UHGV virus genome: UHGV-1338495 | DNA length: 20,518 nt | Direction: 5' to 3' (one strand) | Source of the DNA: a virus | Shown: piece after piece, positions 4,358 to 18,385 of the stretch | How the letters are laid out: every line of letters starts with the position of its first letter | How positions within the stretch are numbered: position 1 is the stretch's first letter | Program-made: the position numbers and the translations under genes | The notes under the pieces: model-generated | Seen by the model: the letters and a program-made list of their open reading frames with translations, nothing else | Databases searched by the model: none | Told to the model about the DNA's origin: nothing

Positions 4358-5699
4358 TGATCACCTCCACGCGGCGGCCACCCGGAACAAAAACCGGATC
4401 GGGGATATTGTTTCTGCGGACAAAATACTGCCAGCGGCGGCTGTTACCGGTGGCACGGTACAGCGTGACCAGTGCCGGTTCGGTGGTTCGCACCATGACC
4501 TGAAAAGCACCGGGAAGATGCACGCTCCGCGTGGTTAAATCTTCTGTCAGCGCAAGCCCTGCATCACGTAATGCAAGGGCGGTGCCGGTATGGCCCTGTG
4601 CGGACAGATCCAGCACCTGTTGTTCCATGGCATCGCTCAAATCCCGGTTGATACGCTGCACATCAGCAGAACTTTCCAGCCAGGCCAGTCCGCCCGCACG
4701 GTCAGTATCCTGAACGTGCGTCGTATTCTGCCGGATGACCTGATCCAGCAGTTTTCCGACCGTCTGCGCCTGCGACACCAGGGCTGCACTCTGCATGACG
4801 CTCCGCAGCAGACGGATATTGTTCTGTGCCGCAGGCGTCAGACCAATCAGGCGCTGCGGATCATCCTGTTCGCTGAGGGTGTAACGCAGGGAAGAAAGTG
4901 TGCGGTACAGCTGCGGCATGGCCTGCTCTGTCGTGCTGTCACGGTTTGTGGTCAGGCTGCCGGACGGCGTTCCGGCTTTTCCGGTCAGCGACAGGGAAGG
5001 ATCGCCGGGCAGCCCCGCCAGCACGGCAAACATTCCGGCCAGCGATTCAGCCATGCGACGGGGCGCATTAATCAGGGCGGCGGCATTCCCTTTCAGGGCA
5101 GTAAAACTGGCCGTAAAGGCACTGATATCCTGCACAATCCCCATCCCTGAAACGGCATTCTCCAGCGCATCAATTTTATCGCTGATGGTGTCGGTCATGG
5201 CCTGTACATCATGCAGACCGTCTGAAATCACCGTCCAGCCGTCTGAAAGTGTGTTAAACAGCTGATTCATTGCTGAGCCGCTTTTCTGCTCCAGCGCAGC
5301 TGCCGTATCTTCTGCCACCGAAGGGGCGGTATCGTCACTGGCGGGGATCACGTTGATCGTGAACTCAACCGTTCCCTGCTCGCTGGCGTTATAACGGCTT
5401 TCAAAGCTGTTTATCAGCACGTTTAACGTGCCGTAATCCGGGTGCATCAGTTCACCGGCACCGGGTGCACGCAGCGCATCACGCAGGCGGCTTCGCTGTG
5501 TCTGAAGATCGTCTCCGGTCACTAGAACCGTGAATGTGAACTCCGGGAGTTTTGGCCCCAGATCATCCGCACCGCCGCTTTCACGCAGTGGGTATTCACG
5601 GCGCACAATGTTACGTCCGCCCCGTTCCCGCTGCTCCTGATAAACCAGGAACGGTACGCCACGAAAGGAGCCACGCCCCGGCGTGTCAGTAGAGGCCAT
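4341..5699 (-). CDS. DNA circulation protein (Mu N-like)
   Basis: 452-aa ORF directly downstream of and overlapping the tape measure gene. The N-terminus (…SFRGVPFLV…) matches my memory of the DNA circulation N-terminal domain. Confidence 0.65.
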   Translation of the reverse strand: MASTDTPGRGSFRGVPFLVYQEQRERGGRNIVRREYPLRESGGADDLGPKLPEFTFTVLVTGDDLQTQRSRLRDALRAPGAGELMHPDYGTLNVLINSFESRYNASEQGTVEFTINVIPASDDTAPSVAEDTAAALEQKSGSAMNQLFNTLSDGWTVISDGLHDVQAMTDTISDKIDALENAVSGMGIVQDISAFTASFTALKGNAAALINAPRRMAESLAGMFAVLAGLPGDPSLSLTGKAGTPSGSLTTNRDSTTEQAMPQLYRTLSSLRYTLSEQDDPQRLIGLTPAAQNNIRLLRSVMQSAALVSQAQTVGKLLDQVIRQNTTHVQDTDRAGGLAWLESSADVQRINRDLSDAMEQQVLDLSAQGHTGTALALRDAGLALTEDLTTRSVHLPGAFQVMVRTTEPALVTLYRATGNSRRWQYFVRRNNIPDPVFVPGGRRVEVISEQQD

Positions 5700-7743
5700 A
5701 GTTCCCTCCGTTCCAGACGTTCACATCCAGGCCATGCTGTGCGGTATCATCCACATCAATACTGCGCGCCCGCCAGCCTTCAGGGGCCACAAGCTCCACC
5801 CGTGCGGCGGTTTTCGCGGTGGCCTGTCCGCCGTTTTCGTCACTGCTGCCACGCAGTTTCTGCCAGGCCTGCGTCAGCCAGCCCCCCAGATAATCACCGA
5901 GATAGCTGCCCACCGTGGAACCAATGGCAACCCCGACCGGACCGGCAGCCGCCCCCAGCGCGCCACCGGCGATACTTCCGGCAAGAGAACCCACGGCACC
6001 GGCTTTATCGGCTGCACTGGCGCTGCTGTCCAGCAGTACAGGAGCCGCCATGGCACCGGCCCACAGGGCACCACCACCCAGCCGACCGGCACCACGGAAC
6101 AGCCCGGCAAAACGCCCCAGCCCCATGCGGTTTCCGGCCGCCGTTAGCAGACCACCGGCACGGCTCATCATACGACCGAAGAAGCCCTGTTTACCGGCAC
6201 TCTCCGCCAGTTGCTCACCGGCAGTCACGACGGTCGTGACACCCCGTCCACGTCCGGGGCCGCGTTTTTTACGGCCGCGCACGGTTTTGCCGTCACCGCT
6301 GACCACCACATCCCCGCCACCTGAGGCCAGGCCACCCGCAGGCCAGTTGGTGACCAGCACGGGCTGAACGGCAGCCGGATTTACCCCGGTAAGGAAATTC
6401 AGGAACCGGCCAGCGCGTCCGGGCTGCGTTCCCGGTACAGTGGTCTGCGGTTTGCGGAAGGGCGACGTCAGCACGGAGGTCATCGCCATGCCATAGCGTA
6501 AGGGGGTTGCGCCGAGACGTAATGCCCCCGTCCCTGCAAACCTGAGCACCTTCAGCGCACGGGAGGCGAGATACATATACATCAGGTACTTTGCGGCGGT
6601 CTGCGCACCCTGACCAATACGATCCAGCGCATCGCCATAACCGGCGTCGCGCAGTGCCTGAAGCGTTTCCCTGACTTTCTGAATGGCCCGGTAAAAGCCG
6701 GTCGCAGCATCTCTGGCATACTCAAATCCCTGATTCAGTGCTGAGGCCGTCTGTGTGGCCAGCTTATCCTGTAAGCCGCTTTTCTGTGCCGCATCGGCAT
6801 AATCCAGAAAGCCTTTCAGGCTCTTTTTCAGGCTGTCAAACGGTCCCTTCGCCATCACGTCACGGGCAAACTGATCCCAGACGTCACCCATCATGGACGT
6901 CATTCCCGTCCATGAGTTCATGGCGTTTTTCTGGGCACCTTTTGCCTGTTCGGCCATCACCTGAAATAACAGGCGAATGCTGTCCGGTCCCAGTTTTCCT
7001 TTCTCGCCTTTCTCACGGATGATCTTCTGGTTTACACCCAGCTTATCGGCCAGTAACTGGTAAACGTTAATCCCGTATCCGGTCAGAATATTGGCGTCCG
7101 CTGCCTGGATACTCTGGCGGGCAAACATCTGTTTGAGTTGCAGGGACGCACCCTGTGCCTCTGACAGTGACCAGCCGTGATAGCCGCCCTGATCCTGAAG
7201 CATGGTAATAAAGCGACGGGCTTCCCTGTCACTCATGCCAAACCCGCGACTGGAGGCGTATTCCTGCATAACCCCCGCCAGCCCCCAGGTGGTGTCTTTG
7301 GCGTTCTGTACCGCCCAGGCTTTCACTGCTTCCGTTTTTGCCTTATCGCCATGATTAATGGCGTTGAGACGCAGAATATAGTTCTCCATCTCTGCGGCCG
7401 GGCGGATAAAGGCTTTATTAAAACCGTAGACCGCAGCCCCTCCCGCCAGCATCCCGTAAAGGTTGCTTATCCGCCCGATGGTGCCGGTAATGCTGCCCTG
7501 CAGGCGGTCAAAATCTGACGTTACCGTGCGGATACTGCCACGAACACCGGCAAGCGTTCGCTGCATACGGGAGCCAACAAGCTCTGTTTCCTGACCGGCC
7601 CGGCGTGCTGCATTTCCAAGACCACCCAGCCCCGTCCTGCCGGAACGGGAGAATGCCCCCAGCTCCTGTGACCACTGGCGGGATTTGGCGGAAATATTGC
7701 CGAGTAAATCGACAATCAGGGAGGCTTTCAGGTTTTTTGCCAT
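5686..7743 (-). CDS. Tail tape measure protein
   Basis: 685-aa ORF, the largest in the window. It has a long predicted helical middle section and a Gly/Ala-rich hydrophobic C-terminal third, and sits between the chaperone and baseplate genes. Confidence 0.8.
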   Translation of the reverse strand: MAKNLKASLIVDLLGNISAKSRQWSQELGAFSRSGRTGLGGLGNAARRAGQETELVGSRMQRTLAGVRGSIRTVTSDFDRLQGSITGTIGRISNLYGMLAGGAAVYGFNKAFIRPAAEMENYILRLNAINHGDKAKTEAVKAWAVQNAKDTTWGLAGVMQEYASSRGFGMSDREARRFITMLQDQGGYHGWSLSEAQGASLQLKQMFARQSIQAADANILTGYGINVYQLLADKLGVNQKIIREKGEKGKLGPDSIRLLFQVMAEQAKGAQKNAMNSWTGMTSMMGDVWDQFARDVMAKGPFDSLKKSLKGFLDYADAAQKSGLQDKLATQTASALNQGFEYARDAATGFYRAIQKVRETLQALRDAGYGDALDRIGQGAQTAAKYLMYMYLASRALKVLRFAGTGALRLGATPLRYGMAMTSVLTSPFRKPQTTVPGTQPGRAGRFLNFLTGVNPAAVQPVLVTNWPAGGLASGGGDVVVSGDGKTVRGRKKRGPGRGRGVTTVVTAGEQLAESAGKQGFFGRMMSRAGGLLTAAGNRMGLGRFAGLFRGAGRLGGGALWAGAMAAPVLLDSSASAADKAGAVGSLAGSIAGGALGAAAGPVGVAIGSTVGSYLGDYLGGWLTQAWQKLRGSSDENGGQATAKTAARVELVAPEGWRARSIDVDDTAQHGLDVNVWNGGNYGLY

Positions 7744-7746
7744 GGG

Positions 7747-7941
7747 TTACTGCTTCGTTCTGAGAATTTTTTCGGTCTGTCGGCAGTGCCGGTAAAGCTG
7801 CGATAAGGGGAGGTTAAGCGCCCACTCCGGGCCGCTTTTTGTCACCATCCCCAGCACAATTGCGGCTTCTTCAATCTGATCCCGGCACTGCATCTGGTCG
7901 CCCCCGTTCAGCGACCAGCTTTCCTGCCATCGCGGAATCAA
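7747..7941 (-). CDS. Overlapping +1-frame ORF at the 3' end of the tail assembly chaperone gene (candidate frameshift extension, or a separate small gene)
   Basis: This frame is open from about 7950 to the TAA at 7749-7747 and ends 3 nt before the tape measure ATG. It overlaps the last ~70 nt of the chaperone ORF in the +1 frame. The track start is TTG, not ATG. Confidence 0.4.
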   Translation of the reverse strand: MIPRWQESWSLNGGDQMQCRDQIEEAAIVLGMVTKSGPEWALNLPLSQLYRHCRQTEKILRTKQ

Positions 7942-8350
7942 GCAGGCTTACCGCCGCCATCAGACGGGAGAGATCGCGCTCGCTGAGCTGTCCGATCTGA
8001 CGCGGAGACAATGGCCCCTCAATCTGGCCAACAGCGGCAATCTGACGGCGCAGCAGTGCAATGCCGCGCAGTGCCGGCGAGGCTATCAGAACCGGGCCGC
8101 CATTTCGGGTTTCCATAAGACGCTCGGCCTCGGTTTCCGCGTCAATGCTGTCTTTCGCCGTCAGTTCGCGGAAGGTGACGCGGTATTCACGGGATTCCCC
8201 GAACGGCAGACCGTCGAGCAGATCCACATAGCCGTTCGCCAGCTGTTCAGCCAGCCCGGCGGTGCGGGGATCGCCGTCTTCAAGTACATCCCGGATAGCC
8301 TCCATCACGGCCTCGTCAGAAACCGCCGTTTTTTTCTTACGTGTGGTCAT
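7871..8350 (-). CDS. Tail assembly chaperone candidate (Mu gp41 position)
   Basis: 159-aa acidic ORF between the tube and tape measure genes, the conserved position of the tail assembly chaperone in long-tailed phages. Call is by position. Confidence 0.5.
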   Translation of the reverse strand: MTTRKKKTAVSDEAVMEAIRDVLEDGDPRTAGLAEQLANGYVDLLDGLPFGESREYRVTFRELTAKDSIDAETEAERLMETRNGGPVLIASPALRGIALLRRQIAAVGQIEGPLSPRQIGQLSERDLSRLMAAVSLLDSAMAGKLVAERGRPDAVPGSD

Positions 8351-8364
8351 TGCATTTTTCCTGA

Positions 8365-8730
8365 TTACTGGACACGGGTACTGGTGGCGCTGGCGAACTT
8401 CGCGGAGATATCACCGCCACCGTCAAGCGAGGCCGGTTCACTGCTCCAGGCCTTCGTCATCATATGGACTTCACCGGTATCGGCCACGAACTCAATCGTG
8501 ACCGCAGTCCAGGTGTTGATTTCATCGGCAGCCGGTGAACCTTCTCCGCCAGCCGGAAATTTACAGTCCAGCGTCGCCTCACGGGGTTTCTCACGATAGC
8601 CATAGACTTTCGCGCCTTTCACCACTTCACGCTCAAAGCCGGACGGGGAGAACGTGGCTCCCTCAAGGGTGGCGTACTCCTGTCCGTTCACACGGATGGT
8701 GGCCGTGCCCTGATGCTGTTTTCCGCTCAT
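8365..8730 (-). CDS. Tail tube protein (Mu M-like)
   Basis: 121-aa ORF 8 nt downstream of the sheath gene; sheath-tube adjacency is conserved in contractile-tail phages. Confidence 0.7.
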   Translation of the reverse strand: MSGKQHQGTATIRVNGQEYATLEGATFSPSGFEREVVKGAKVYGYREKPREATLDCKFPAGGEGSPAADEINTWTAVTIEFVADTGEVHMMTKAWSSEPASLDGGGDISAKFASATSTRVQ

Positions 8731-8738
8731 GCCTTACC

Positions 8739-10241
8739 TCACAAAATGAAACGGATCTGCGCGGCCATGAAGCGGAACTGGTTAACCAGATCCGGTGTAC
8801 ACATCACATCCAGACGGTTACGGTCTTTTGTGTTGCGCTCCACGAGCAGATTCTTTTTAAAGGTGTCCAGATTTTCGACCAGCCCGAGTTCCACCCATTC
8901 TTCCCCCAGTGCAATCAGCTGGAGCGTCATAATCTCCGGCGTCACGATATTCTGACCGGGCCGGACGGGAGTACCGTTATCGGCCAGTTTGTGGCGCGGG
9001 AAACGCTGCGTGATAAAGGTGCGCAGGGAATAACGCAGATATGACAGGGTGTAGATGGTTTCTACATCCAGATAGCTGGGATCGCTTTCGCCGTATGCAT
9101 TCTGACGGTACATCGTCACCTGACGTTCAATCTGCACCACATCAGCGGCCGCAACGGTCACCGTGGACATGCCGGTATAAAGCAGGCTGTTTCGCTCTTC
9201 CCGCGTCAGACGAGCCGGTGCTTCAGGTGCCATACGGGCAGGCAGCGCCAGTGTCTGTAATGGTCGGGCCGGATCCGTTGACAGGGAGGGCGCACAGACC
9301 GCACAAATGGAGGCCGCCCAGACATAATCCGGCTCTGGTGCTTTAGGAATAGAAGTGCAGGTAAACAGGAAGTCATTACGGGATTCACCAAAACTGGTTG
9401 CCGTACCGAAGGTGCCGGTATGCGCCATCCAGACCATACCGTCCGACATTTTTACCGGTCCCCAGCGTTTCAGCAGTTCATCCGCCAGAATTTTGAGATT
9501 TGCCGCATCCTTATAGGGCATGACGATGTAGTTGTACTGACGATTCCCCATCCCTGAGACGCTACGGGTGATATCGGGGTTTGTTGCCTTCTGTGTTGGC
9601 GCGACGAGCTCCAGCGTAAGACCGGCCGGTGTAGTTTCACCGTCATAATAGTTCACCCGTAAATCATGAGCTGAGCATTCACCGATAAAGCGGGCGTTAA
9701 CCCCCATGCTCCCTTTAAGTCCTTCAGCATTATCACCACTGACTTCAGCTGCGATAGCAGTGAATGGCGCATCAGTGTCAGCGTTAATGACCTTAGCCAG
9801 CTCTTCCACAAGCTCTTTACCTTTTTTCCCCTTACTGACGGGCAGGAGGTAACGGCGACCGCCGATGTAAACACTTAACACCCCGTCTGCCAATGCTGTT
9901 CCAATGATATTCATCACGCATGCCCTGGACTGACCTGTTCCAGCCCCCTGTGCAATGGCATATAACTCTGTGTCAGGGTTAATGGCGATAAATTCCTCTA
10001 CCATCAGTGCAATCATGGAACCTCGCCCCCAGAGTTCTCTTGCTTGTGAAGCTCGGGTAATACGTACTGGTACATCAAGCTGACCGCGCCCCTGAATGGT
10101 GGTGTCTTTCATTGCAGCCTGACCAAACAACAGTACCGCCTGACGCTGTGGTGGAGTGCCGGTCACGGCCATTGAATTATTGATTTCAATCTGTACCAGC
10201 GGAATGCGATTGTTATCGCCGATATAATCAAAGTTAATCAT
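8739..10241 (-). CDS. Contractile tail sheath protein (Mu L-like)
   Basis: 500-aa ORF of the size and position of a sheath protein. Start ATG at 10241-10239 confirmed in the sequence. Confidence 0.8.
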   Translation of the reverse strand: MINFDYIGDNNRIPLVQIEINNSMAVTGTPPQRQAVLLFGQAAMKDTTIQGRGQLDVPVRITRASQARELWGRGSMIALMVEEFIAINPDTELYAIAQGAGTGQSRACVMNIIGTALADGVLSVYIGGRRYLLPVSKGKKGKELVEELAKVINADTDAPFTAIAAEVSGDNAEGLKGSMGVNARFIGECSAHDLRVNYYDGETTPAGLTLELVAPTQKATNPDITRSVSGMGNRQYNYIVMPYKDAANLKILADELLKRWGPVKMSDGMVWMAHTGTFGTATSFGESRNDFLFTCTSIPKAPEPDYVWAASICAVCAPSLSTDPARPLQTLALPARMAPEAPARLTREERNSLLYTGMSTVTVAAADVVQIERQVTMYRQNAYGESDPSYLDVETIYTLSYLRYSLRTFITQRFPRHKLADNGTPVRPGQNIVTPEIMTLQLIALGEEWVELGLVENLDTFKKNLLVERNTKDRNRLDVMCTPDLVNQFRFMAAQIRFIL

Positions 10242-14748: not shown

Positions 14749-15747
14749 TTAATCAATTTGTCCTTCCAGCACCTCAAGCATTCCGCCCCGGATATCCGAT
14801 TTCAGCTTATCCATATTGATAACCCGGTAAGCATTCACAATCACATCCAGTTTGTCGGGCTGACGTTTCAGACTGTACGGTGCATTAACGGCAATCTGCA
14901 CACTGCCATCCTTATTTTCCACGATATACATCAGATTTTTGTGCCGTTTGTCCCACAGCACCGCTTTTGGCTTTGCCAGCATTGCCGGTAAGCGCCCGAA
15001 GTCCTCTGGCATCAGGGCGATGCCGTCATTCTGATGTTTCACACTGTCTGCATGGAGCACATTTTTACCGCTCATCGCCAGCAGGCGGGCCGGTGGCGTT
15101 CCCGTCCGGCTTTCCACTGCCTGCGCAATGCTTTCAGTCATAAAGCCCAGCGTGCGGATATCGTTACCACCTCGCCGGGTCTGCATGATGTTTTTTGCCC
15201 AGATGCGGAACGCCAGCTGCCGCTCCGGGCTGTTGTTCATCTCCTGAACCACCATTTCCCGTAACGCCGGGCTTTTCACCTCGATCAGTTTGCGGATCAG
15301 CGCCTGGTCTGTGCCGAACGCTGCCGAGCCGGGGTTATATGACCAGCCCACATCCGGTGTCATGGTTCTGGTGCCATCTGAATATGTGGTCACCGGCATT
15401 TCTCTGACTTCTCCGGTCTGTTTATCCACGCCAGCCTCAACATTGCGGGTGGAGAGATGATCCTCACCGGATGAAACGGATAACCCCATTGCATCCAGAC
15501 GAGCCTGAGACAATGGCCGCACACGGCAGCGGCAGTTCCAGCCATTAGGTGGGTAGTGTGTTTTCCAGAACGGATCGTCATAGCGGAATACCAGACCGTT
15601 AAGGGCGGAATGCGACGGGCGGGTACGGCTGTCCATGACCGCCACATACTGCCAGAACGGATGCGTGTCCGTGTTGTTCATCATCTGCGTGTAACGCCCG
15701 GCATTGTAAGCCACACGGGTGTTCACGTTGTAAATCAGCGCCAGACG
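14749..15747 (-). CDS. Head morphogenesis protein, MuF family (Mu gp30-like); 5' end lost in the N gap
   Basis: The track fuses this with the portal across the N run. The part after the gap contains the MuF signature region …RVAYNAGRYTQMMNNTDTHPFWQYVAVMDSRTRPSHSALNGLVFRYDDPFWKTHYPPNGWNCRCRV…. Confidence 0.8.
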   Translation of the reverse strand, partial: RLALIYNVNTRVAYNAGRYTQMMNNTDTHPFWQYVAVMDSRTRPSHSALNGLVFRYDDPFWKTHYPPNGWNCRCRVRPLSQARLDAMGLSVSSGEDHLSTRNVEAGVDKQTGEVREMPVTTYSDGTRTMTPDVGWSYNPGSAAFGTDQALIRKLIEVKSPALREMVVQEMNNSPERQLAFRIWAKNIMQTRRGGNDIRTLGFMTESIAQAVESRTGTPPARLLAMSGKNVLHADSVKHQNDGIALMPEDFGRLPAMLAKPKAVLWDKRHKNLMYIVENKDGSVQIAVNAPYSLKRQPDKLDVIVNAYRVINMDKLKSDIRGGMLEVLEGQID

Positions 15748-15847
15748 NNNNNNNNNNNNNNNNNNNNNNNNNNNNNNNNNNNNNNNNNNNNNNNNNNNNN
15801 NNNNNNNNNNNNNNNNNNNNNNNNNNNNNNNNNNNNNNNNNNNNNNN
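15748..15847. other. Assembly gap (run of exactly 100 N)
   Basis: 100 consecutive N. It falls between the portal and MuF coding regions, both of which are incomplete. Confidence 0.95.
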
Positions 15848-16857
15848 CGTAAATCAGAATCCCTGATTTCCCGGCGCACCTCGTTATGCACCTCACCCAG
15901 CGAGCGCGCGCCTTTGTCTCCGGCTTCCGTGGTCAGCGTGCCGCCGAGTATTGCTTTGGAGATGGAACGCTCACCCCACGAAATCATGGTTTCAAACGGA
16001 TCGGCCTGACCGTTCGCTGCCGCCTGAAACTCCAGCGACATCCCGGCCGGGATGATCCCGCCTGTACGTCGCCCGATATCCATCACCGCCCGCATCAGGG
16101 CACTTTTCTGCTCCGGTGTTGCCCCGGACGGGTATTTCCCGACCTTCATTGGCAGGCCGTACACCTCCAGAAATTCCGCCAGATCGCGCACGGAATAGTT
16201 TTTGAAAATGAACGGCCAGATAAGCGTTCTGACAAGCCCCGTCGCACCACCGTAGCCGGTGCGTGAACGCGACTGATGCACTATCCAGCCAAAGGGCTGA
16301 AACGCCACCCCGGCATGGCTGCCGTCACGCAGCCGCAGTTCGCTCAAATCATCCGGGTTAAGGCAGAAATGCCCGCTGTCACGCCAGCGGATGGCGCGGA
16401 TGATGTGCATTTTACCGAGCATCCCGTGCTCAATTTCCATGCAGGAATAGCCCTTCAGGATGGCATCCGTGGCGTCAAACAGCATGGCATCAAACCAGTC
16501 TGCGGAATGCAGATATTCGTCGAGCATTTCCGCGTCCTTTTTCTCATTCGCGCTGGCGTTCGGTGGCGGCTCAATGCTCCATGGCACCCCCTGAATGGCA
16601 AGACGTCGCTTGCCCAGCTCCGCAAAAAGGTGGGTGTCCTTTTCTTCAATGTCAGCCGCCAGATCGGACTGGGCAATCAGATCGCCACGTTCAGCCCCGC
16701 GAAGGCACTGCGCCGCCCGGTTCGGGGTGATACCCGAGGCGGGATGCTCAACATAACGGCTGGCAATCTGCGGAATATCCAGCGCGGTACTTTGCATCTC
16801 CGGGTCAAAGGAGAAAGGTTTTCCGTCAAGATCAATTATGCGTCCCACTACCAGCAC
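15848..16857 (-). CDS. Portal protein, Mu gp29-like (DUF935-type); 3' end lost in the N gap
   Basis: About 336 aa are visible. GTG start at 16857-16855 overlaps the 3' end of the terminase gene. The N-terminal region (…GDLIAQSDLAADIEEKDTHLFAELGKRR…) matches my memory of Mu-type portals. Confidence 0.7.
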
Positions 16858-18385
16858 CCCCGATCAAATTCATGATATGCCTCATCGTCATCACGATAAC
16901 CGCCCTCCATTGCCCGCGACCGCTCCGGCAGCGCCTGACAGGCTGATTCATCCAGGATGAATCCCTCCATGTATGACGCCCGGTTTGCCATACAGAGTGC
17001 CACGGCAAAATCACCATGGCGGCGGGCGTTCGCAGCCGTTGCGTTCTGGTCCTTCGTGCGCCCCTTGTCGATTTGCGGGATACCATTCACCACCTTCACA
17101 TGGCGCAAATCATCAAGCGTGGTCTGATGGCGGGCGACGAGGATATTCTGATCTTCAAACTCGGCTTTCAGTTTTGGCATCCACTCGCCGTACCACTTCG
17201 GCGACAACATCACGCAGTCGATGATGTCCGGGCCAAAGGCCAGCAGTGCGGCTTCTGCCAGATAGCCGCCGTTACCGGTGGCGTCGAACGCCGCACCGAC
17301 CAGCGCCGGAACGCGGGTCAGGATGTACATCATCACCTGTTCCTGCTGGGCATACGGCAGGTTGCGCAGCTCCACGCGAAACACCTCGCGCTTTGCCAGG
17401 AGTTCGGTGATTTCCAGCAGCACAAAGCAGGACAGGTCACCGGTGCGGGCAAAGTCTTCCCCGAAGCTGAAGCGGGAACGGGGATTTAATTTCTCTAAAA
17501 GCGGTTTTAAATGTTCTTCACACCAGGTTAAAACTTCCGATTCACGCAGCCATGCGGCACGGCTGATGAAGTCGTCCGGGGCTTCAAACGTCAGAATCGG
17601 GATGTCACGAATCATCGCCATTTCAATAAGCGCGTGAGGAATATAGGCACCGCCGGATTTTTTCGGGATACAGCCGTATTCCTCGTCGGCATCCTCACGG
17701 GTCGGGGCGTTTTTGTAGAGATCATCACGCCATTTCTGCTCGCTTTCCGGTGACCATTCCTGATCGGTGACGTAACAGATACGACGGTACAGCCCGTCCG
17801 CAATGGCATCATCCAGGGTTATGCGGTGGACGCTGTAATCCTTGCGCCCCTCGCGGGCTTCCTGAATGTACTGATTAAACAGATTATCGACGCCGTTATG
17901 CGTGGAGATAATACGCACGCGCGCGCCCCACATAGTGAGCGCCATTGCCGCCTTGAGAAGCTCATCCAGTGACTCGTGGAACGCGGCTTCATCAATCACC
18001 ACATCCCCCTGAAGACCGCGCAGGTTTGACGGACGGGAAGACAATGCCTGAATTTTGAATCCACTGTTCGGAAAGCGGATCATGTAGGTCAGAATTTCTT
18101 CTTTTTTATCCCGATCCCAGAANNNNNNNNNNNNNNNNNNNNNNNNNNNNNNNNNNNNNNNNNNNNNNNNNNNNNNNNNNNNNNNNNNNNNNNNNNNNNN
18201 NNNNNNNNNNNNNNNNNNNNNNCAAACCAGCGGGCCTGATAATCCAGAAACACCGGCATATCACCGGGCAAATCAAGGCTGTCCGGCACATCCACGCCCA
18301 GCAGGGCTTTTTCACCGGACAGATCAATTTTGCGGGGAGGTGTCATTTGTATCAGTGAAGGAGACTTTTCTTTGGCTTTGTTCAT
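16848..18385 (-). CDS. Terminase large subunit, Mu gp28-like; interrupted by a 100-N gap
   Basis: ATG at 18385-18383 opens a 54-aa stretch that runs into the gap. On the other side the 411-aa track ORF frame stays open upstream into the Ns (…FWDRDKKEEILTYMIRFPNSG…). The two halves are in different apparent frames, as expected if the true gap length is not 100. Confidence 0.75.
18123..18222. other. Assembly gap (run of exactly 100 N)
   Basis: 100 consecutive N inside the terminase large subunit gene. Confidence 0.95.

Follow-up and report, generated by a model that had tools for sequence, protein, structure and literature searches.

The question raised by this locus is how a second reading frame, which overlaps the end of a tail assembly chaperone gene and runs on to the tape measure gene, could come to be translated. 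The window, by which we mean the whole stretch of 20,518 nt that was analysed (UHGV virus genome UHGV-1338495), is a Mu-like prophage of E. coli whose head, portal, baseplate and DNA-circularisation genes match Mu families. Its contractile-tail module lies on the minus strand in the same order as that of Mu, with a tail sheath gene (Mu gpL-like; 8739..10241; 500 aa; Pfam Phage_sheath_1, E 6e-34, and Phage_sheath_1C, E 4e-22), a tail tube gene (Mu gpM-like; 8365..8730; 121 aa; Pfam Tail_tube PF10618, E 1e-29), the chaperone gene and a tape measure protein gene taken from the ORF list (5686..7743; 685 aa; Pfam TMP_3 PF20155, E 6e-18). The frame-0 chaperone ORF (7871..8350; the 'G' product, orthologous to Mu gp41) encodes 159 aa, ends with TGA at 7873-7871, and matches both Pfam Gp41_Mu (PF23746; E 1e-32; profile positions 1-107 of 107) and PHROG 508 'tail assembly chaperone' (E 1e-41). 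Relative to the chaperone, the second frame lies at +1 (or, equivalently, −2); it opens at 7947, immediately past a stop at 7950-7948, and runs to a TAA at 7749-7747, which is followed by CCC and then by the tape measure ATG (7743-7741). The first-pass annotation had described a 159-aa ORF ending at 7871, a second frame open from about 7950 to 7747 that ends 3 nt before the tape measure ATG, a G5 run at 7901-7905 in the context GGG-CGA, and the need for a +1 or −2 shift to join the frames; these coordinates and the frame relation hold, and the right slip site was named.

According to the stop positions in the three frames, both frames are open only across a 74-nt overlap (7874..7947), so any shift that joins them must occur there, and the G5 run (7901-7905) is the sole homopolymer of four or more bases in this overlap at which a shift could do so. 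The frame-0 codons around it read GTC GCT GAA CGG GGG CGA CCA, with CGG at 7906-7904, GGG at 7903-7901 and CGA at 7900-7898, which places the slip site CGG_GGG_CGA at 7898..7906 on the minus strand. The second-frame segment that would be reached from it (the 'T' part; 7747..7902, minus strand) comprises 51 codons, GDQMQCRDQIEEAAIVLGMVTKSGPEWALNLPLSQLYRHCRQTEKILRTKQ, and the TAA. The 8-mer GGGGGCGA occurs twice in the window against 1.5 copies expected, a count close to chance, so its weight lies in its position, codon phase and conservation in homologues and not in its occurrence as such. The second copy, in the sheath gene, was rejected as a slip site, as the −2 frame there stops after four codons and two copies per window is the chance level.

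On sequence comparison the locus is the orthologue of phage Mu gp41/FS-gp41. The chaperone, like Mu gp41 a member of PF23746, shares 48% identity with it (tblastn, E 1e-25), and the T part shares 52% with the Mu T part (E 1e-21), so that the two parts are about equally conserved. The 12 nt GAACGGGGGCGA (GAA CGG GGG CGA) are common to both phages in the same codon phase and at the same alignment position, Mu reading ACA CAA GAA CGG GGG CGA GTG at the site, and the gene position, the frame relation, the T length of 51 codons and a T-frame stop just before the tape measure start are likewise shared. The two loci differ in the chaperone N-terminus, which is longer in the window (159 vs 144 aa), in the frame-0 tail past the slip site (8 codons in the window vs 6 in Mu) and in an ATG at T codon 4, which the window has and Mu lacks. 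The slip site falls in an R-G-R column that is invariant in a protein alignment of seven distant homologues. In the GenBank record of Mu, Mu_41 is accompanied by a joined CDS named Mu_56 ('tail assembly chaperone frameshift product'), which is annotated as 'verified -2 translational frameshift in PMID 15469818' (Xu, Hendrix & Duda 2004); we take the status of 'verified' from this annotation and from reviews. Our reconstruction of the Mu −2 product (188 aa, ...QERGGEWLRC...) matches exactly the UniProt entry P0DJY4 'Probable tail assembly protein FS-gp41' and GenBank UIW09302.1, whereas the reconstructed +1 product had no match in the protein collection searched. The efficiency in Mu has been put at about 2% in vivo (~2.2% for the natural −2 frameshift in Mu gpGT; PMC3498833), and the Mu 10-mer alone gave 14% frameshifting in the PURExpress purified translation system (bioRxiv 10.1101/2025.10.02.679949). 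The analysis showed homology to Mu, an identical slip site, two conserved frames, a coding signature in the second frame and no conserved start codon or downstream RNA structure, and we consider it highly probable that the locus carries a programmed −2 ribosomal frameshift orthologous to that of phage Mu gene 41. The earlier suggestion of a programmed shift yielding a short and a long chaperone is thus supported by the Mu orthology and by the conservation of both frames.

How far the site is conserved was assessed in 107 loci, 27 from GTDB species genomes and 80 from IMG/VR. These were sampled with the patterns LRRQIAxVG and TLRELTAGD, which lie far from the slip site, so that the sample is unbiased towards it; the patterns came from a four-sequence chaperone alignment, a seven-sequence alignment having no sufficiently conserved stretch. 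GGGGGCGA was present in phase in 89 of the 107 loci, 11-56 nt ahead of the frame-0 stop; the run begins at codon position 2 in every case, and its 21-nt context takes 32 different forms. Past the site, the second frame in these 89 loci spans 44-52 codons and ends between 20 nt before and 17 nt after the tape measure start. Seven annotated phages with 35-49% identity to the window chaperone (Mu, D108, Pasteurella Pmp9, Alteromonadaceae B23, Shewanella MuM16-2 and two Vibrio phages) all have [C/A]GG_GGG_CGA in phase and a +1 frame open to the tape measure start, and the site is present in all six complete E. coli chromosomes sampled (82-99% identity). The alignment check proposed in the first-pass annotation thus found the G run and both frames conserved across Mu-like phages. 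From codon usage elsewhere in the same genes, the expected probability of CGG-GGG-CGA for R-G-R is ~0.001, which indicates selection on the nucleotide sequence itself. The conservation of CGA is partly confounded by the T frame, where these bases specify G-[D/E]. From Enterobacteriaceae to Vibrionaceae and Desulfobacterota, the 8-9-nt site is conserved at synonymous positions, and it is the only invariant stretch from the site to +120 nt in a 24-sequence alignment. A text search of the literature for GGGGGCGA returned only an unrelated Burkholderia phage table, in which the string lies within a ribosome-binding site.

No conserved RNA structure was detected downstream of the site: RNAalifold on 24 diverse sequences gave −0.15 kcal/mol with no covarying pairs, and single-sequence folds were no more stable than shuffled ones (z −0.15 for the window, +0.28 for Mu). 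A downstream stimulatory RNA structure was rejected on these results, which agree with the frameshifting obtained from the 10-mer alone (bioRxiv 10.1101/2025.10.02.679949). Our survey therefore supports the idea that the signal resides in the short site by itself.

The same survey bears on the proposal that a single gene has been split into two frames by a one-base homopolymer error or mutation within the G run, either as a sequencing artefact or as a pseudogene. The frames do fuse on loss of one G, two independent records (Erwinia tracheiphila, L019, and Kluyvera YDC799, L017, identical in sequence to L098) have G4 and a fused ORF, and some gene calls in Logan assemblies of Mu relatives are fused at 187 aa. 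Nevertheless, G5 stands in phase in the 89 loci, in Mu, D108 and the five more distant phages and in the six E. coli chromosomes, it is invariant in 22 IMG/VR contigs at 82-99% identity, and the 21-nt context of the window is repeated exactly in 11 IMG/VR contigs. At least 1000 contigs carry the 159-aa frame-0 protein unchanged, and the frame-0 tail past the site is short, with its stop kept in every lineage. The Kluyvera record has a second indel downstream and the Erwinia record comes from a Pilon-polished assembly; both G4 records look like error or decay in those records and not in the window. With G5 invariant in every close relative examined, and no continuous single ORF in homologues save in these two records, the homopolymer indel that the first-pass annotation had entertained retains a practically negligible probability.

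The extended protein could also arise if RNA polymerase added two G to the run, or dropped one, and the altered message were then translated in the ordinary way. In bacteria, productive transcriptional slippage takes place on A or T tracts of about 7-9 or more bases, next to which G5 is short. The rare CGG and CGA that flank GGG are moreover kept at synonymous sites, which is explained by pausing of the ribosome and not by the polymerase, and the literature treats the Mu case as ribosomal. Two added G would yield the same protein as a −2 ribosomal shift, and the two mechanisms look alike in protein data from reporters or mass spectrometry, the bioRxiv 2025 assay included; even so, slippage by the polymerase seems to us extremely unlikely.

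The T frame has the pattern of variation of a coding sequence. The 39 distinct T peptides share the pattern G[DE]x...E....L......P.W.L.LPL..L.R, and variable sites in the T-only region number 4/3/17 (window clade) and 12/10/20 (Mu clade) at T-frame codon positions 1/2/3, a bias towards the third position; at the level of sequence, the second frame encodes protein. The T segment corresponds to PHROG 12783 'unknown function' (E 1e-37), a family of its own because the segment is often annotated as a stand-alone ORF. No Pfam family covers the T part, no solved structure of the fusion protein was found, and the predicted 201-aa fusion is absent from the protein databases searched.

Another reading makes T a separate 48-aa protein (MQCRDQIEEA...) initiated at an internal ATG (7893-7891), as the first-pass annotation had also suggested; the G run, 7 nt upstream of it, would then serve as a Shine-Dalgarno-like element. 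The ATG and the GGGGG at this spacing do exist, PGAP calls exactly this ORF as a 'hypothetical protein' in some genomes, the 48-aa sequence is found on 116 contigs, D108 lists '41.5' as its own gene, such ORFs are gathered in PHROG 12783, and T codon 4 is ATG, GTG or TTG in about half of the distinct sequences. The ATG is, however, confined to a sub-lineage 96-99% identical to the window and is absent from O157:H7-type relatives and from Mu. In close E. coli relatives (82-90% identity), O157:H7 among them, the sequence there is GDQAQCR or GEQAQCR, with no start ahead of T codon 15-18; Mu reads GEWLRCR with CTG (Leu) as T codon 4, a position simply occupied by a hydrophobic residue (M/L/I/V/A). 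In Mu-type loci the first ATG, GTG or TTG comes no earlier than codon 13 (in most, no earlier than codon 28), and three of these loci lack one throughout the frame; in neither group does the T ORF have a conserved start codon of its own, and yet the conservation of the peptide extends to its first residues. A T-frame stop sits within 12 nt upstream of the site in 33 loci. Since starts are not conserved and these stops lie so close upstream, independent initiation is not a conserved route to T, and the Mu T part has been reported within the fusion FS-gp41. A separate small gene is therefore a very unlikely explanation of this locus. Termination followed by reinitiation at a downstream GTG or ATG in the T frame was also rejected, as these starts are not conserved and their use would drop the conserved N-terminal part of T.

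For the preferred reading, a −2 ribosomal shift, we infer for this prophage the shift itself, its size (−2 and not +1), its efficiency and the roles of both products. Most ribosomes would make the 159-aa chaperone and stop at 7871, while a small fraction would shift and make the longer protein. The pause would occur with tRNA-Gly on GGG (7903-7901) in the P site and the rare, slowly read Arg codon CGA in the A site; CGA is among the rarest Arg codons of E. coli (3.8 per 1000; Table 1, PMC3498833) and makes up 6.6% of the Arg codons in these genes. The P-site tRNA would then move back two bases along G5 and re-pair perfectly with GGG at 7905-7903, and reading would resume at GGC GAC CAG ATG..., GGC being the commonest Gly codon in these genes (50%). 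The computed product, join(8350..7901, 7902..7747) on the minus strand, is a G-T fusion of 201 aa (...AERG-GDQMQCR...) that would end 3 nt before the tape measure start.

The shift may instead be real and of +1, the tRNA-Gly slipping from GGG to GGC to give a protein of 200 aa with one Gly fewer. The predicted junction peptide is ...LVAERGGDQMQCR for −2 and ...LVAERGDQMQCR for +1. Either shift reaches the same frame and the products differ by that one Gly, so the sequence cannot separate them here, and the direction for this site is carried over by analogy from Mu. In a Citrobacter-like clade (10 loci, 62-78% identity to the window protein) the site is AAG_GGG_CGA, where the −2 move would re-pair on AGG with two of three bases and +1 would be no worse. 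At the window site, by comparison, G5 allows perfect re-pairing at −2 and leaves a wobble mismatch at +1, and the Mu record for the identical site gives −2 as verified, with Gly-Gly in the deposited product. We accordingly regard a +1 shift as unlikely.

The roles of the two products are proposed by analogy with lambda gpG/gpGT (PMC5009743). The shared N-terminal part (G) would coat the tape measure protein, the rare T extension would recruit the tube protein, a fixed ratio of the two would be needed for tail assembly, and neither product would be expected in the virion.

Across the wider family the site takes other forms. CGG_GGG_CGC was found in three Desulfobacterota MAGs or genomes (two Desulfosarcina and one Desulfatiglandales), and in two further sequences the homologous T segment lies in the −1 frame, namely in a Smithella MAG (CGG_GGG_GGA_TGA) and in an IMG/VR contig 65% identical to it (AAG_GGG_GAA_TGA); a metagenome scan returned no further relatives of this −1-frame variant. 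The direction of the shift may thus have switched within one homologous family, which, if true, would offer a natural system for studying what sets −1 against −2 slippage on G runs. In the sub-lineage of the window, G5 might further act both as slip site and as a Shine-Dalgarno-like element, so that a free 48-aa T peptide would be made besides G and G-T; if true, this peptide would change the stoichiometry that is normally fixed by the frameshift. We regard these readings as unlikely. We also considered whether a −1 shift on G5 itself yields a third conserved product and rejected the idea, as the −1 extension in homologues is anywhere between 3 and 21 codons long; in the window the −1 frame closes after about 20 codons.

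The locus is found in 230 of 5,426 complete E. coli genomes. In all six of the E. coli RefSeq chromosomes inspected the frameshift is unannotated, RefSeq/PGAP predicting the short chaperone alone or, in some cases, adding a spurious 48-aa 'hypothetical protein'. In the prophage copy studied here the chaperone locus itself is intact. Elsewhere in the window, an ORF at 14749-16857 fuses the portal and MuF genes with a net loss of ~805 nt relative to a relative at 96-97% nucleotide identity, and this deletion suggests that the copy may be defective and no longer making tails. The locus adds one more example of a textbook recoding event and is of small biological significance; its practical value lies in the annotation gap that it exposes (RefSeq/PGAP, PHROGs) and in small comparative additions.

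Among known systems, the nsp2TF of arteriviruses (PRRSV) is likewise a natural −2 programmed frameshift. It is mechanistically unrelated to the Mu-type site, being a eukaryotic system with tandem slippage on G_GUU_UUU that needs a trans-acting protein complex bound downstream. The +1 frameshift in the tail chaperones of SPP1 and of Listeria phages concerns the same gene class and leads from frame 0 into the same alternative frame, but it differs in its direction, which was established as +1 by protein sequencing, in its site sequences and in its proteins, which are non-homologous. In lambda (gpG/gpGT) and P2 (E/E+E') the shift is −1 on a slippery heptamer, which in lambda is G GGA AAG, whereas here it would be −2 on G5 by a proposed single-tRNA slippage in the P site; no lambda G/GT-type −1 arrangement on an X_XXY_YYZ heptamer was found at this locus, the T part lying in the +1/−2 frame. 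No sequence homology to the lambda family was detected, and a weak Phage_TAC_7 match links the chaperone only to the P2 E/Mu 41 group. The lambda and P2 genes are nevertheless alike in lying upstream of the tape measure gene and in making much of a short product and little of one with a C-terminal extension, with presumed roles that are the same as here (PMC5009743). The closest counterpart is that of Mu itself, for which a −2 shift at this very sequence has been established before, a point missed in the first-pass annotation; the feature described here is real, ordinary and already known.

The homologous loci that keep the second-frame C-terminal part of the chaperone fusion (the T segment; 7747-7902, minus strand, in the window) in the usual direction do not all share the CGG_GGG_CGA slip site found in the window (7898-7906, minus strand). 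Citrobacter braakii and IMG/VR relatives (L016, L065-L069 and L071-L073) retain the T frame behind AAG_GGG_CGA, in which AA precedes a G4 run. There −2 re-pairing would fall on AGG, matching at only two of three bases; the frameshift in this group may be weaker, or may be a +1 shift. Two Desulfosarcina MAGs and one Desulfatiglandales MAG (L023, L033 and L040) carry CGG_GGG_CGC; CGC takes the place of CGA at the A site, so that the T frame begins with G-A rather than G-[D/E].

Another variant of the same chaperone family is seen in a Smithella MAG (L038, 1835-1851) and an IMG/VR contig (L123, 3300035436_000164, 1531-1545), where the counterpart of the T segment (GGMI[ML]RHR...ILSLPL), homologous to it, is encoded in the −1 frame, preceded by the G-run sites CGG_GGG_GGA_TGA and AAG_GGG_GAA_TGA. 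Within one homologous chaperone family, the frameshift thus appears to have changed direction. A metagenome scan found no further relatives of this −1-frame clade. Records from Erwinia tracheiphila (L019) and Kluyvera genomosp. 3 YDC799 (L017, identical to L098) have G4 in place of the G5 run, so that the chaperone frames are fused into one ORF. A second indel lies further downstream in the Kluyvera sequence, and these G4 records likely stem from assembly errors or decaying prophages.

The 8-mer GGGGGCGA occurs twice in the window, about as often as chance predicts. The second copy (10023-10030, minus strand) lies in the sheath gene in the same codon phase as the chaperone slip site, reading TGG_GGG_CGA (W71-G72-R73 of the sheath protein), and a −2 shift there would meet a stop after four codons. 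Should the 8-mer by itself be enough to shift a few percent of ribosomes, sheath translation would end prematurely at this position in a small fraction of cases.

Public records of the E. coli RefSeq loci (L010-L015) describe the chaperone as a short 'phage tail assembly protein', with the T segment mostly uncalled by PGAP (in one inspected record, L011, it is a 48-aa 'hypothetical protein'), and none of the PGAP records inspected for these loci carries a ribosomal slippage annotation. The T segment corresponds to PHROG 12783, entered in PHROGs as a family of unknown function.

The 411-aa ORF that occupies the place of the terminase large subunit gene (16848-18083, minus strand) has only a weak, partial Terminase_6N match (E 2e-4, under the Pfam cut-off) and may be truncated, like the neighbouring portal gene. 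The latter belongs to a single 702-aa ORF (14749-16857, minus strand) uniting Portal_Mu (positions 2-269 of the 336 in the profile), Phage_Mu_F and MuF_C. A related Mu-like prophage, inserted in LC727881, has one ORF for the portal (532 aa) and another for MuF (443 aa). The aligned blocks flanking the fusion junction (about 15748-15847) share about 96-97% nucleotide identity. At the junction about 100 nt in the window correspond to about 905 nt in LC727881, so an in-frame deletion probably joined the two genes in the window's prophage, which may be defective.
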